Source: Eledone cirrhosa (lineage: Eukaryota). From it: a stretch of 64,000 nucleotides of DNA. The notes beneath the pieces were generated by a model, which saw nothing but the letters and a program-made list of their open reading frames with translations, was not told the DNA's origin and did not search any database. Below, piece after piece: positions 13,006 through 53,257 of the stretch. A program made the translations under genes and the position numbers. How positions within the stretch are numbered: position 1 is the first letter of the stretch; each line of letters starts with the position of its first letter. The stretch lies in NCBI GenBank assembly GCA_964016885.1, contig OZ024753.1:23188001-23252000 (forward strand). The letters run 5' to 3'.

Positions 13006-14290
13006 GTAAGTTAATTTAAAAAAAAAAATTTTTTTAAGAAATTTTCTTAATTTACGTCTTATATATTATTGTTCTGCATTCTCCTGCATTGAACCACCTA
13101 GGTACTATAACATAACCTGTGTATTTGCTGGCATTAGCGTACATCTGTGCGCTTATGTTAGTAGATATATTAAATTATCTATATTTATCTCCAAATCACT
13201 GATTTGTCGAGCAAACCTGCCAAAACCACTTCTAAATTTTTTTGGGGGGTGTTAGTAGGCGTCTGTCATCTTACCATCCCATTCCTACTGACTAGCCTCT
13301 GTGTCACGTGATTGATTCTTTAGAATCGGCCATATGATCAGTGGCAGGGAGAATTTTCAGTGGCTGGAACCCAGTCCTCGATAGCTGTTCCAGTTGCCGA
13401 ATTATTATTATTTTTATATGAGTCCCCAGTGTCCGCGCATCGCCTGGAGACTCGGCTGAGAATGACCTCCCTGATGACGCAATGAAATTCTCAACAGTTC
13501 ATTACGTAACTGTCTTTATCCCATTGCAGAAACTAATTAGTTGGAGTGAAAATTTAAGTAAGTAAGTTAATTTTTTTTTTTTAATTTTTTTAAAGAAATT
13601 TTCTTATTTTACGTCTTATATATTATTGTTCTGCATTCTCCTGCATTGAACCACCTAGGTACTATGACATAACCTGTGTATTTGCTGGCATTAACGTACA
13701 TCTGTGCGCTTATGTTAGTAGATATATTAAATTATCTATATTTATCTCCAAATCACTGATTTGTCGAGCAAACCTGCCAAAACCACTTCTAAATTTTTTT
13801 TGGGGGTGTTAGTAGGCGTCTGTCATCTTACCATCCCATTCCTACTGACTAGCCTCTGTGTCACGTGATTGATTCTTTAGAATCGGCCATATGATCAGTG
13901 GCAGTGAGAATTTTCAGTGGCTGGAATCCAGTCCTCGATAGCTGTTCCAGTTGCCGAATTATTATTATTTTTATATGAGTCCCCAGTGTCCGCGCATCGC
14001 CTGGAGACTCGGCTGAGAATGACCTCCCCGATGACGCAATGGAATTCTCAACAGTTCATTACGTAACTGTCTTTATCCCATTTCAGAAACTAATTAGTTG
14101 GAGTAAAAATTTAAGTAAGTTAATTTTTATTTTTTTATTTTTTTAAAGAAATTTTCTTATTTTACGTCTTATATATTATTGTTCTGCATTCTCCTGCATT
14201 GAACCACCTAGGTACTATGACATAACCTGTGTATTTGCTGGCATTAGCGTACATCTGTGCGCTTATGTTAGTAGATATATTAAATTATCT
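13006..14290. repeat. About 555-bp non-coding unit in 2.3 near-identical tandem copies, bounded by (TA)n
   Basis: ACGTCTTATATATTATTG recurs at 13054, 13611 and 14164. Confidence 0.95.
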
Positions 14291-14304
14291 CTCTCTATAT
14301 ATAT

Positions 14305-15350
14305 ATGGAAAAGAATGAAATGAAATTTCATTTCTCACTCTCAGTACGGATGATACCTAAATATAAGTATGTATACGTACATACATATATGTGTACAGAC
14401 GCACAGTTGTATGTATAGATATACATACATGCACACATATATATATATGTACGTATGGGTTTACCGAACATTTATCATAATGTTCGGTTTGTTTGTAAAC
14501 AAACAGCCCGAATTACGCCGTACAGTGCTCGGCAACCATCGTCGCCCTTTTGTTCAACACTGACACAGGAACGAGTTTCAAGCTTATTAGATATTGTCAG
14601 GATCGTATACCTTTCTGTCAGATGATTGAACGTCTGAAAGTATATACTTTCGTCATGCATATTAACGGCTGAGCAGCCTAATTTGCATATCGAGTGAGTT
14701 AGTCGGCCGGGCATACCGAAAACGATAAATGGAAAAGAATGAAACGAAATTTCATTTCTCACTCTTAGTACGGCTGATACCTAAATATAAGTATGTATAC
14801 GTACATACATATATGTGTACAGACGCACAGTAGTATGTATATATATACATGCACATATATATATATGTACGGATGGGTTTACCGAACATTTATTATAATG
14901 CTCGGTTTGTTTGTAAACAATTAAGCCGTACAGTGTTCAGCAACCATCTTTGCCCTTTTGTTCAACACTGACACAGGAACGATGCACTAGTTTCAAGCTT
15001 GAATACTTATATTTAGATATCAGCTGTACTAAGAGTGAGAAATGGAATTTCGTTTCATTCTTTTCCAATTATCGTTTTCGGTATGCCCTGCTGACTAACT
15101 CACTCGATATGCAAATTAGGCTGCTCAGCCGTTAATATGCATAACGAAAGTATATACTTTCAGACGTTCAATCATCTGACAGAAAGGTATACGATGCTAA
15201 CGATAGCTAATAAGCTTGAAACTAGTACATGGATCCAGTGTTGAACAAAAGGGCGACGATGGATGCCGAGCACTCTACGGCGTAATTCGGGCTGTTTGTT
15301 TACAAACAAACCGAACATTATAATAAATCTTCGGTAAACCCATACGTACA
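14305..15350. repeat. Family B: 424-bp unit, about 1.6 tandem copies followed by an inverted copy
   Basis: ATGGAAAAGAATGAAA at 14305 and 14729. About 15001-15350 is reverse-complementary to the region spanning the unit junction. Confidence 0.9.
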
Positions 15351-15542
15351 AAGAATCAGTTCTTTGTAATTTATTTTTAAATTTTTTTATTTTATTTTCA
15401 ACCCCAAAACTTTCCGGACTTTCGCAGTTATCTACGTTACACCCCCCCCCCCGCACGCAGTCTACTATTGCCTGTGTGAAGTGACCGAGTTTCTGCGCAT
15501 GCGCGTTCGTACGGTTGTCCTTCCCGTTCCTATAACCATATA

Positions 15543-15590
15543 CATCCCGAGCTGAAGATCCGCGAAGGTGAAACAATTGTTCTCGGTATG
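15543..15590 (+). ncRNA. Minimal type I hammerhead ribozyme
   Basis: CATCCCGAG-CTGAAGA-TCC GCGAA GGT-GAAAC AATT GTT-CTCGGTATG. Stem I pairs, core intact, palindromic loop III, GUU cleavage triplet. Confidence 0.8.
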
Positions 15591-15959
15591 GTGAACTAAC
15601 TGTTGTGTAACCACTGTTATATATAAATATATATATATATATATATATATATGTATATATATATATATAAATATATCTATATCTCCTTATAATATATAAC
15701 CAGCAATTTCTCTGTCTGTCTGTCCGACAGTGGAAACACGTGCGCGCGTGGTTGCTATCTCTCCAGCTATCCCTCTCTTTTAGTCTGTCTGTTTCTCTCA
15801 CTCTCACTCTTTCTCTTTGTAACACACTAACATTCCTCCCTTCTATCGCTGTGACGAATGGGGAGGTGGAGGAGGAGGAGGAGGAGAGAGTCACTTCGTC
15901 ACTTCACCTCTGCCTTTCTTTCTCTGCCCTCTCACTCCCTCATTACGTACAGACATTAG

Positions 15960-16115
15960 GGCGGTGGATTGGCAGAATCTGTAGAGAGTCGGACACCATG
16001 CTTCATAGCATGGAGTTACGTCCCTTTACGGTCTCAGTTCAAATACCGCCGAGGTTGACTTTGCCTTTCATCCTCACGGGGTCGATAAAATAAAGTACCA
16101 GTAATGTACTGGGTA
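15960..16115 (+). mobile_element. tRNA-derived SINE of the octopus type
   Basis: B-box GTTCAAATACC followed by GCCGAGGTTGACTTTGCCTTTCATCC..GGGGTCGATAAAATAAAGTACCAG. Recognised from memory of cephalopod SINE cores. Confidence 0.75.
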
Positions 16116-16269
16116 ATTGCTGGCCTTGTGCCAAAAGTAGAAACAATTATTAGAAACATTGCTTCATTTTTACATATCTAAGCATTAGTAAAATAACTAA
16201 TAATTTCAAAAGTAATTTTTCAATTCAAATTGTTATGAACAGCAAAACATTAATAATAATTTTGTTCTA

Positions 16270-16605
16270 AGAAATATATATACATTTCTGTGTGTAATAT
16301 ATATATATATATATACACACACAGAAATATATATACATTTCTGTGTGTGTAATATATATATATACACACAGAAATATATATACATTTCTGTGTGTGTAAT
16401 ATATATATATATACACACACAGAAATATATATATATACACACAGAAATATATATACATTTCTGTGTGTAATATATATATATACACACACAGAAATATATA
16501 TACATTTCTGTGTGTGTAATATATATATATATATATATATATATATATATATATATATATGTATATATATATATATATATATATATATACACATACAGAA
16601 ATATA
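16270..16605. repeat. Minisatellite of self-complementary units ACACAGAAAT-ATATATAC-ATTTCTGTGT separated by (TA)n
   Basis: About 5-6 complete or partial units read directly. Confidence 0.9.
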
Positions 16606-51375: not shown

Positions 51376-51450
51376 AGAAAGAAAGAAAGAAAGAAAGAAA
51401 GAAAGAAAGAAAGAAAGAAAGAAAGAAAGAAAGAAAGAAAGAAAGAAGAA
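51376..51450. repeat. (GAAA)n microsatellite
   Basis: Read directly. Confidence 0.97.
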
Positions 51451-51670
51451 AAGTCAGCGTAAGGGTCACACTACAGTCAGGCGAGAAAACGCCGCGAAAA
51501 ATGTTATTCCAAAGAAACTATATTTTAACAAAGGCATATATAATGGGTGTCTGTATGGTCAAATGTGTGAACAGAAAATTGGAACGTTAACTTATCAAGA
51601 TTGACCATACGGAATGATCAATTCTATCCGGTGGTGAACCAACAAACCTGAATAAATAAATATATATATA

Positions 51671-51853
51671 TAAACGGAAAAAATGAAACGAAATTTCATT
51701 TCTCACTCTTAGTACGGCTGTTACTTAAATATAAGTATGTATACGTACATACATATATGTATACAGACGTACAGTAGTACGAATACATACTTATATTTAA
51801 GTAACAGCCGTACTAAGAGTGAGAAATGAAATTTCGTTTCATTTTTTCCGTTT
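51671..51853. repeat. Family B terminal segment as a fold-back (about 70-bp arms)
   Basis: AAACGGAAAAAATGAAACGAAATTTC.. / ..GAAATTTCGTTTCATTTTTTCCGTTT. Confidence 0.9.
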
Positions 51854-51854
51854 A

Positions 51855-51966
51855 TCCTTTTGAAGTCACAAGCGGTTAATCCTATATAAGCTTTGTTGGA
51901 GGTGTCCGTCCTCACATTGTACTGGTAGATCACATTACGATCTCTGCATCTGGTATCGAGGGGGCA
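51855..51966 (-). mobile_element. Short PLE GIY-YIG fragment
   Basis: CPLDTRCRDRNVIYQYNV..KAYIGLTACDFKR. Confidence 0.75.
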
Positions 51967-52168
51967 CACATGGTTATATTGTTACATGAATACACATGCA
52001 TATATACATACTTAGCTATATCCCCCCATGTATATGCATCATATATATATATATATATATATACACATATATATATGAATATGAATGTATGAATGCATAT
52101 ACATGGGGGGATATAGCTAAGTATGTATATATGCAATGTGTATTCATGTAGGAATATAACCATGTGTG
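51966..52168. repeat. Inverted repeat, about 75-bp arms, around a TA-rich spacer
   Basis: CTTAGCTATATCCCCCCATGTATATGCAT / ATGCATATACATGGGGGGATATAGCTAAG. Confidence 0.88.
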
Positions 52169-52659
52169 TATCATCCACATATAAACACGTGACTGCAAGT
52201 GTGTATATCGATATTGGAAGACACAACTTTTAAATACGAATGTATAATGAGATTTGGCTGGAAGCTTTTATAGTGGACATAAAATAGGAATGAATAGATG
52301 GCGATATGTATATGTTACTGTATTTCATGAATACATAAAATATATTGAAGCATCTTTTACTAACTTAGAGACACTTAAACTTAAATAGGCATAGCATATG
52401 TATATACATACACACACACATATATATGTGTATATATATATATATATGTGTGTGTTTTATATGTGGTATATATATATATATATATATACATTTAAAAACA
52501 TACGCATCCACACACACAAACATGCACACATATATATGTGTGTGTGTGTATGGAAATCTTTAGAAAATTAACAAAGAAAGGATAAAAAAACGAACGGAAA
52601 CAAAACGAAAAATATCTTTTTAAGGGGAACACACACACGCACGCACACGCCCGCACACA

Positions 52660-53257
52660 CATACATACATGGTGGCTGCCAACTCGTTTTCGAGTACGGT
52701 CACTTCTTTATATCCATGTAGGAGAACCTCTACCGATGCGCTGAACGAGTGCGACTTTTTAGTCCAGCCAGCGGCTTGAAACTCTGGTACAAACACTACA
52801 CTTGTGACAATTACTGAAACATAGTGCTGGGCTCATGGTACCATGTGACGACAAGTGCAGAGAGATTTCCAGATATAAAGCAATGCCTGTGCCGTGAAGC
52901 TTTTATAGTAAGCAAACGCACTGCACAAAGCCAGTCCAACTCTCTTAACCAACATACATACAAACATACATACATGGTGGCTGCCAACTCGTTTTCGAGT
53001 ACGGCCACTACTTTATATCCATGTAGGAGAACCCCTACCGATGCGCTGAACGAGTGTGACTTTTTAGTCCAGCCAGCGACTTGAAAACTCTGGTACAAAC
53101 ACTACACCTGTGACAATTATTGACACATACTGCTGGGCCCATGGTACCATGTGACGACAAGTGCAGAGAGATCTCCAGACATAAAGCAATGCCTGTGCCG
53201 TGAAGCTTTTATAGTGAGCAAAGGCACTGCACAAAGCCAGTCCCACTCTCTTAACCA
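52660..53257. repeat. 305-bp unit in about 2 tandem copies, each preceded by CATA repeats
   Basis: CATGGTGGCTGCCAACTCGTTTTCGAG at 52668 and 52973. Confidence 0.93.

Follow-up and report, generated by a model that had tools for sequence, protein, structure and literature searches.

In the 3.0-Gb genome of Eledone cirrhosa (assembly GCA_964016885.1), the 64,000 nucleotides between positions 23,188,001 and 23,252,000 of contig OZ024753.1 (hereafter the window, numbered from its first base on the forward strand) form a dense nest of inserts within (TA)n, among which lie eight direct repeats where a non-coding unit is followed by a partial repeat of its own start. A preliminary description, made from the letters alone, had taken these repeats as the signature of a circular template, left either by reverse transcription around a circular RNA (as proposed for retrozymes), by partial tandem formation as in Penelope-like elements (PLEs), or by rolling-circle insertion of DNA. 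Self-BLAST recovered all eight repeats where they had been placed, with E-values of 1e-22 or lower. Seven are indeed greater-than-unit inserts bounded by (TA)n, and for these the retrozyme or PLE-type explanation finds support; the eighth, the 305-bp unit, sits in (CATA)n, consists of two stacked truncated copies with their own microsatellite tails, and falls outside it. We put at roughly three in four the probability that the seven are non-autonomous retrozymes, pasted into the genome by the reverse transcriptase (RT) and GIY-YIG nuclease of a PLE from a pool of RNA that is predicted to be ribozyme-cut and partly circular.

Each of the seven is designated here by its unit length. The 556-bp family (U556) occupies 13003..14298 on the plus strand with a period of 556 bp repeated 2.33 times, is 97% identical to its consensus and runs at 14298, its fixed 3′ end, into TA. 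Directly beside it, U424 (window period 424 bp x1.68, family unit 431 bp) lies on the minus strand at 14301..15000 with its fixed 3′ end at 14301, followed by a back-to-back second arm on the plus strand at 15003..15350. The minus strand also carries U528 (19533..20150, period 528 bp x1.17, family unit 539 bp), U627 (a 627/638-bp family; 22369..23169, period 627 bp x1.27) and U531 (23524..24259, period 528-531 bp x1.40, 97% to consensus). The second arm of the U627 insertion, on the plus strand at 23194..23504, is broken by later inserts, and its 3′ piece at 24654-24722 stops at the family's other fixed site. On the plus strand follow U589 (a 589/602-bp family; 40544..41207, period 589 bp x1.12) and U997 (49551..50945, period 997 bp x1.40). 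Two further insertions of this kind are two-armed: one of U424 at 24767..25369 (arms 24767-24991 and 24999-25369), whose ends are two different fixed sites, and a short one at 54785..55120, missing from the preliminary list, that belongs to a family related to U627.

Dispersed families with one fixed end

Each unit returned between 1,500 and 3,800 first-look candidates across the genome, so the seven units are dispersed families and not local duplications, as a tandem duplication at a single locus would have been. About 40 candidates per unit were scored and 30 loci fetched, and identity among copies ranges from 84 to 99%. On the pyrimidine-rich strand every family has the same anatomy, with a fixed 3′ end running into (TA)n and a 5′ end that may fall anywhere in the unit. 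Across all loci fetched, 296 of 336 arms stop at a fixed 3′ site, which rules out free circular permutation of both ends: the start points proposed for checking do vary, at the 5′ end alone, while the 3′ end keeps to one or two sites. There is a single such site in U997 and U589, and a pair of them, 49-122 bases apart, in U556, U424, U627, U528 and U531. Arms joined back to back occur 48 times in all, in 31 cases with both ends at fixed sites, and among the 29 such pairs of two-site families 27 use different sites. Eight duplicate loci were left out of the arm-end counts and of the lap and allele counts given below. The flanks are AT-rich or (TA)n, and target-site duplications are unreadable within (TA)n.

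Greater-than-unit length, the feature that first drew attention to these inserts, is a minority state, reached by roughly one copy in three or four. The initial family searches select for such copies; sampling by the 3′ end does not, and by that route 7 of 29 U589 insertions and about 9 of 25 U997 insertions exceed one unit. (The U997 sample took the first 26 rows, of which 20 were fetched, leaving out the window's two copies and four known long copies; the known long copies are counted back in wherever a denominator of 25 is given.) At the other extreme are arrays of 5 and of at least 11 units, which likewise end at the fixed 3′ site. The longer one (locus L317:3940-10000; G000:C3, 255.00 Mb) is formed by a U556 subfamily with the family's fixed 3′ end and units 0.2-2.2% apart, unit-to-unit distances that indicate later local duplication.

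The insertions carry the footprint of Penelope, namely 5′ truncation, partial tandems, an inverted second arm and an optional tail. Partial tandems, inverted truncated arms and optional tails have been described for PLEs (Craig 2021, PMC8557442; Arkhipova 2013, PMC3846280), and the PLE Poseidon uses two adjacent internal start sites with priming on two strands (Frangieh 2024, PMC11167929). AT-rich or (TA)n targets, microhomology at the 5′ junction and two adjacent start sites are all shared with PLEs, and non-autonomous Chlamys elements such as MRC1 also insert as multicopy head-to-tail arrays. Unlike PLEs, the units have no reading frame, and their tails measure 49-122 bases against 30-40. 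No match to the window's PLE peptides was found inside the units, where CT-rich open frames run over three of them, and no frame combining RT with GIY-YIG was found there either.

The closest published counterparts are the metazoan non-LTR (long terminal repeat) retrozymes, which are non-coding tandem units with one hammerhead each and a proposed PLE-driven mobilisation through circular RNA (PMC7229834; bioRxiv 10.64898/2026.07.22.740005), and which have already been proposed to be non-autonomous PLE derivatives (Li, Clavereau and Pollet 2026, bioRxiv 10.64898/2026.07.22.740005). As in those elements, the units here are found both in tandem and dispersed, from monomers to multimers, each unit with a hammerhead and in the company of PLEs. 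Unit size is 431-997 bp here, 170-400 nt in PMC7229834 and 51-972 bp in the 2026 preprint. Two fixed 3′ start sites, two-armed insertions and 5′ stops at the cut site, all mapped here, do not figure in the available parts of these two papers.

Hammerhead folds, type I and permuted

A structure descriptor scan found a type I hammerhead fold in four families: U556 (27/30 loci), U997 (29/30), U589 (23/30) and U424 (20/30). Loop II is long in the first three, which is why their folds were overlooked both in the preliminary description, where the 555 and 997 units were said to have no recognisable ribozyme, and by Rfam; U424 has a minimal type I fold. In the window, the U556 hammerhead lies at 13467..13546 on the plus strand with a palindromic short stem III and a predicted cut after 13542, and a second copy at 14024-14103 has a core change. 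The U997 hammerhead (49634..49758, plus strand) has a 96-base stem-loop II and a predicted cut after 49753, with a second copy at 50631-50755. That of U589 (40847..40981, plus strand; predicted cut after 40976) has long loops II and III, one mismatch in stem I and the U3-A8 core variant, reported earlier (Cervera 2014, PMC4209133), whereas the window copy of U424 (14301..15000) is decayed. Rfam gave only chance matches to microRNA hairpins among the best 150 of 223 rows (E up to 1) and, for 8 loci, no match that reached the gathering score, so the folds depend on our own descriptor, which in 20 rounds on the shuffled window returned two type I matches and one permuted match. In every one of the seven families, type I and permuted alike, the ten core bases are less variable than the average position of the unit (loci L236, L239 and L058 being left out of these counts and of the allele counts). 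These four families are new members of the metazoan non-LTR retrozymes.

More hammerhead-like cores, mostly minimal type I, lie in other PLE terminal repeats of the window (15546-15590, 22116, 24472, 29356, 38376, 44282, 49349 and 54668).

In U627 (24/30 loci), U528 (24/30) and U531 (27/30) the motif reads as neither type I nor type II in the same scan, and its blocks run from the cut site through GAAA to CUGAnGA (S-G-C). Published retrozymes are defined by the type I hammerhead, a definition that these three families, with their non-circular permutation, do not fit. U531 has two intact copies on the minus strand, at 23591..23692, with a bridged stem II, a loop resembling a kink-turn (K-turn) and a predicted cut between 23646 and 23645, and at 24119..24220; the short insertion at 54785-55120 holds one intact fold per arm (54855-54956 on the minus strand, 55015-55116 on the plus strand). 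Both U627 copies of the window have one core change, and in its U528 copy the 3′ lap is damaged while the 5′ lap begins 3 bases before the predicted cut site.

In eleven sequence groups with this order the core is retained in full, A15.1 pairs with U16.1, the base at the cut is not G, and 17-18 bases separate the site from GAAA. Stems I and III are paired in 92-93% of alignment cells, with two-sided changes in 6/6 and 3/5 columns. A direct stem II was rejected, being paired in 36% of cells, the shuffled level. In its place, an upstream segment is the partner of the strand that leads into GAAA (TCGC/GCGA, ACGC/GCGT, GCGC/GCGC or ACGA/TCGT in different groups), a segment further upstream that of the strand after CUGAnGA (GTCC/GGAC, TTTCCA/TGGAAA), and a hairpin lies between the two upstream segments. 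These pairings suggest a fold in which stem II would be split, both of its strands pairing with a third, upstream bridging strand; the core can equally be described as one opened after CUGAnGA. Taken whole, the modelled fold is paired in 79.7% of cells, against 66.3 ± 1.4% in shuffled alignments and 33-44% when the alignment is slid, with two-sided change in 23 of 34 pairs. K-turns have a consensus of a 3-base bulge and tandem GA, and the loop beyond stem III follows this pattern in five of the eleven groups and a one-base variant of it in three more.

Several features weigh against the bridged structure. Its bridge helices are the weakest part (76% and 69% paired), with central pairs that hardly vary; the structure was derived from these same sequences, several of the eleven rows being close kin and two misaligned, and in 4 of 11 the script chose a neighbouring alternative partner.

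The fold is abundant. Evenly spaced DNA totalling 800 kb contained five permuted motifs, against 0-1 in ten shuffles, which would correspond to some 19,000 copies in the genome, give or take a wide margin. The permuted fold is also present in a fourth tandem family, laid out in partial tandems like the others. Besides U627, U528 and U531, the element groups that bear it number five (L199:630-1400, L146:~830-1480, L253:~1930-2200, L254:~5470-5990 and L058:~3280-3920); in the L199 group, with 1,173 first-look candidates, the partial tandems are built of a unit of roughly 780 bp.

Type SGC hammerheads (HRIMA-1 and variants) are known from metatranscriptomes, with a single GCS candidate from the genomes of known organisms in the available part of that study (Eckert 2023, PMC10085705). 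They share with the present fold the order site-GAAA-CUGAnGA, the full core, stems I and III and a linker of 3-4 bases from stem I to the GAAA-side strand. They differ in having a direct stem II and an extra helix that links stems I and II on their outer sides, where the fold described here pairs the stem II strands with an upstream, hairpin-bearing strand and extends stem III by a K-turn-like loop; and they are environmental RNAs, where this fold is present in an animal genome in some ten thousand copies or more. U627, U528 and U531 are retrozyme-like, yet lack both the type I hammerhead of retrozymes and the direct stem II of type SGC, and are a variant of both. The type I descriptors of retrozyme surveys miss such a fold.

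A link to the Naiad clade of PLEs comes from published element ends. Naiads target (TA)n, encode an N-terminal GIY-YIG domain plus RT (unlike the units here) and were reported without canonical hammerheads, eight of them being marked 'half core'; cephalopod Naiads are remnants (Craig 2021, PMC8557442). The last ~420 letters of 36 Naiad records (PMC8557442, File S5) were read by eye, and 11 were resolved. By this reading the same complete permuted fold ends Naiad_Obim, Naiad_Ovul and Naiad_EuTe at the 3′ side, and Naiad_Plae and Naiad_Ptep finish in an S-G-C form related to it. Six nematode records end, again by eye, in a C-S-G hammerhead with a direct stem II, and bivalve and hemichordate Naiads in other conserved structured motifs. 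Targeting of (TA)n and the layout of pseudo-long terminal repeats (pLTRs) are also common to both. Judged from the shared fold, the three permuted families are probably parasites or relics of Naiad-clade PLEs.

We lean, modestly, towards a fuller proposal: that the permuted fold is an active ribozyme of Naiad PLEs and of a retrozyme class with ten thousand or so copies or more, and that the 5′ ends of insertions, taken up in the next section, would be a fossil record of cutting in the germ line, with cut linear RNA copied into DNA beside closed RNA. If so, non-circular hammerheads would move from environmental RNA into animal genomes, with a new wiring of the core, and the apparent lack of hammerheads in Naiads would be explained. 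The competing view, which we hold to be rather unlikely, is that the motif is decayed or non-catalytic, perhaps a protein-binding site of the element that merely keeps hammerhead words. The missing direct stem II would suit it, as would the absence of a sharp 5′ pile-up at the predicted cut site of the permuted families and the success of Naiads in which canonical hammerheads were not found. It sits poorly with the retention, through eleven groups, of the core, the A15.1-U16.1 pair, the non-G cut base, the spacing and two-sided changes in stems I and III, and with the fold seen by eye in distant Naiads.

The search for an autonomous partner counts against the account of the seven families as retrozymes pasted by a PLE. 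Decayed PLE remains in the window preserve pieces of RT and of a C-terminal GIY-YIG domain (11133-12960 on the plus strand; 9844-10904, 42463-44237 and 47177-48409 on the minus strand) and have close relatives in loci L259, L273, L299, L314 and L338. Among 57 sequences PLE fragments are abundant and none precedes a permuted motif on its 5′ side; in the fetched loci neither tblastn with six PLE peptides from the window nor a scan for long frames found an autonomous partner; short Naiad-type peptide motifs found no Naiad-type frame in 2 Mb of this genome; and one exact-pattern genome search for a Naiad partner gave no match. The most divergent motif-bearing element, tried as an autonomous partner, proved to be another non-coding tandem family. 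A search of sequencing runs with the 627 unit listed no RNA run. No paper on the permuted fold, the Naiad link or cut-site stops was found in open PMC and bioRxiv full text, supplements aside.

The RNA that is copied

Greater-than-unit insertions allow successive laps of the same insertion to be compared. In six of seven families laps within an insertion differ less than separate insertions do. Of the occurrences of subfamily alleles, 260 are shared by both laps and 113 confined to one, where 64 shared ones would be expected had the laps come from independent molecules; in U997 they are in both laps in 152 of 165 cases, with no recurrent one-lap allele. To judge by the shared alleles, the repeat arises anew from a single unit or else from sources that are homogeneous; in this respect they support the re-reading of one unit that the circular-template interpretation supposes. 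In six of seven families the predicted cut site, where it is passed, has no more damage than other parts of the unit. Taken together, shared alleles and undamaged passage argue that the site was closed on the template.

The 5′ ends point to a second component of the template. In U589, 10 of 29 ends fall within 21 bases after the predicted cut, where 5% would be expected (p about 1e-6 against an exponential null, in a bin set after seeing the data). The same was then tested as a prediction in U997, and 5′ ends lie at +0 or +11 in 7 of 20 fetched loci (7/25 once the known long copies are included); no other TATA word in the unit has more than one 5′ start. Since stops at the cut site occur in both the first and the second lap, linear cut RNA was probably also a template in these two type I families, and the circular-template signature of the preliminary description is left unproven. 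The simplest reading of the stops, from the positions of genomic ends, is that the ribozyme may cut in vivo and the cut linear RNA be copied; alternatively, the enzyme may have stalled at the RNA fold or where ends had been ligated. A biochemical PLE study found uncut RNA to be sufficient and, in its available part, reported no RNA ends at the hammerhead site (Frangieh 2024, PMC11167929), whereas genomic 5′ ends pile up at that site in two families here.

Some observations cut across this account. In U424 the difference within insertions exceeded that between insertions before two misaligned loci were dropped, and a few one-lap alleles recur (U528 position 496 six times, U589 position 527 four times, U556 position 378 and U424 positions 380/386 three times). 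The stops in the second lap (8/40 in U589 and 4/38 in U997, checked base by base) are not what a seamless covalent circle predicts. Only 5 of 21 cut-site ends are at +0/+1, most sitting at the first TA microhomology, 6-13 bases past the cut, so that a stall at an RNA fold is a possible cause. Cut-site pile-up is absent from U556 and U424 and weak in the permuted families, in samples that favour long copies; and cleavage was obtained for only one of nine Xenopus retrozymes tested (Li 2026, bioRxiv 10.64898/2026.07.22.740005).

At U528 position 496, an A/G difference in stem I, the variant is confined to the 5′ lap in 6 of 17 insertions from different subfamilies, with the reverse in one and both laps in 2-3; editing of a linear dimer RNA is one guess. 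Lap-specific alleles at U627 position 629 and U424 positions 303-305 proved to be alignment artefacts.

A pool of circles, linear monomers and multimers, of the kind found for axolotl retrozymes (PMC7229834), would account for the shared alleles, the seamless passage and the stops in both laps. Under the proposed mechanism, a tandem copy would be transcribed and its hammerhead would cut once per unit, a step with fossil support in the two type I families and none that is decisive for the permuted fold. A PLE protein, by analogy with PMC11167929, would then nick (TA)n and start complementary DNA at one of two fixed internal sites, which lie 70-280 bases downstream of the cut site; use of one site per DNA strand would give the back-to-back arms whose ends are observed. 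Run-off at the cut site of linear cut RNA would yield the copies of 0.18-0.38 unit whose ends are seen, while a closed cut site, be it in a ligated circle, in a multimer left uncut there or between ends that the enzyme holds together, would be passed without a scar to give the observed lengths of 1.0 to more than 11 units. If a single unit is re-read from time to time, the laps would stay alike. Circular RNA is a plausible template, and we regard the odds that circles contribute to multi-unit copies as even.

Three narrower accounts of the template compete with such a mixed pool. Greater-than-unit copies might come essentially only from covalently closed circles, the cut-site stops being pauses at a ligation junction or ribozyme fold; we treat this as a tentative alternative. 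It would explain subfamily and private alleles common to both laps, the seamless cut site and the fixed 3′ site shared by arrays of 5 and at least 11 units, and circles have been shown for coral, mussel and axolotl retrozymes (PMC7229834). Exact cut-site starts in laps one and two are simplest with a free 5′ end, however, copies are mostly shorter than one unit, and unprocessed linear RNA was the main substrate in vitro (Frangieh 2024, PMC11167929). Equally tentative is the opposite account without circles, in which linear read-through transcripts of tandem loci, partly cut, are primed internally and truncated at the 5′ end. Second-lap stops at the cut site and the few recurrent one-lap alleles speak for it, potential source arrays exist (L317 and L148), Poseidon initiates internally on uncut RNA (PMC11167929) and the axolotl has multimeric retrozyme RNAs (PMC7229834). 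Purely linear inheritance would nonetheless let laps drift apart and arrays shorten, which is hard to square with the allele sharing of U997.

Less probable than either is a jump of the enzyme from the 5′ to the 3′ end of linear cut monomers, on the same or a sister RNA, which would mimic a circle. With one RNA species it would explain cut-site stops in every lap, shared alleles and regeneration of the unit, and the R2 reverse transcriptase is known for end-to-end template jumping. Such jumps usually add or lose bases, however, and the junction is no more damaged than the unit elsewhere in six of seven families; a 2′,3′-cyclic phosphate end may also be a poor acceptor.

Local tandem duplication or rolling-circle (Helitron-like) DNA insertion, for which the later duplication at L317 and microsatellite flanks that favour slippage could be cited, is largely refuted for the seven families and very improbable given copies that are scattered in their thousands, fixed at one end and ragged at the other, that come as back-to-back arms and that stop where an RNA would be cut. 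Helitrons are marked by TC...CTRR termini, a 3′ hairpin and insertion between A and T; the ends seen here run into (TA)n with ragged 5′ ends (no scan for Helitron termini was made), and do not match the rolling-circle insertion that had been suggested.

How PLEs form partial tandems, and whether their hammerheads act, are standing questions. To these the families bring countable footprints, in the form of two start sites, cut-site stops in successive laps and alleles shared between laps, together with short templates on which circle, multimer and jump can be set against one another directly in vitro.

The 305 unit and neighbouring repeats

The 305-bp direct repeat (52660-53261, period 305 bp x2) is a SINE-like (short interspersed nuclear element) element stacked in its target microsatellite and stands outside the retrozyme group. 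It is made of two 5′-truncated minus-strand copies within 52660..53384 (52671-52955 and 52976-53384), of 286 bp and 409 bp, each with its own microsatellite tail, (ATGT)n on the element's strand. Among 30 loci, 41 of 48 matches start at the same base beside (CATA)n and the other end stops at many places; the full-length element is about 600 bp and non-coding. The (CATA)n tails, the longer element and the lack of a hammerhead (0/30 loci, in line with the preliminary statement that this unit has no recognisable ribozyme) set it apart from a greater-than-unit retrozyme, and a simple, crude descriptor of the hepatitis delta virus (HDV) ribozyme fold found no match in the full-length element. Like RTE-related SINE-like elements it has a fixed 3′ end, a short-repeat tail and 5′ truncation, with the difference that here it stacks in (ATGT)n. 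Over its 5′ part it is similar to the leader of a LINE (long interspersed nuclear element) remnant, with 80% identity to 55167-55329 and 75% to 55555-55695. LINE remnants with APE and RT matches lie at 20148-20978, 35006-35848 and 55167-61400; from these Pfam matches and familiar motifs we take the frames to be RTE-like.

A 28-bp satellite fills positions 1-9752 with about 349 copies at 81% matches, and further minisatellites lie at 39432-40181 (57 bp) and 63135-64000 (25 bp). Long palindromes are found between microsatellites at 17579-17975, 27781-28107, 37247-37594, 37816-38177, 51670-51855 and 51965-52168, some of which are short two-armed insertions of the same kind as those described above.

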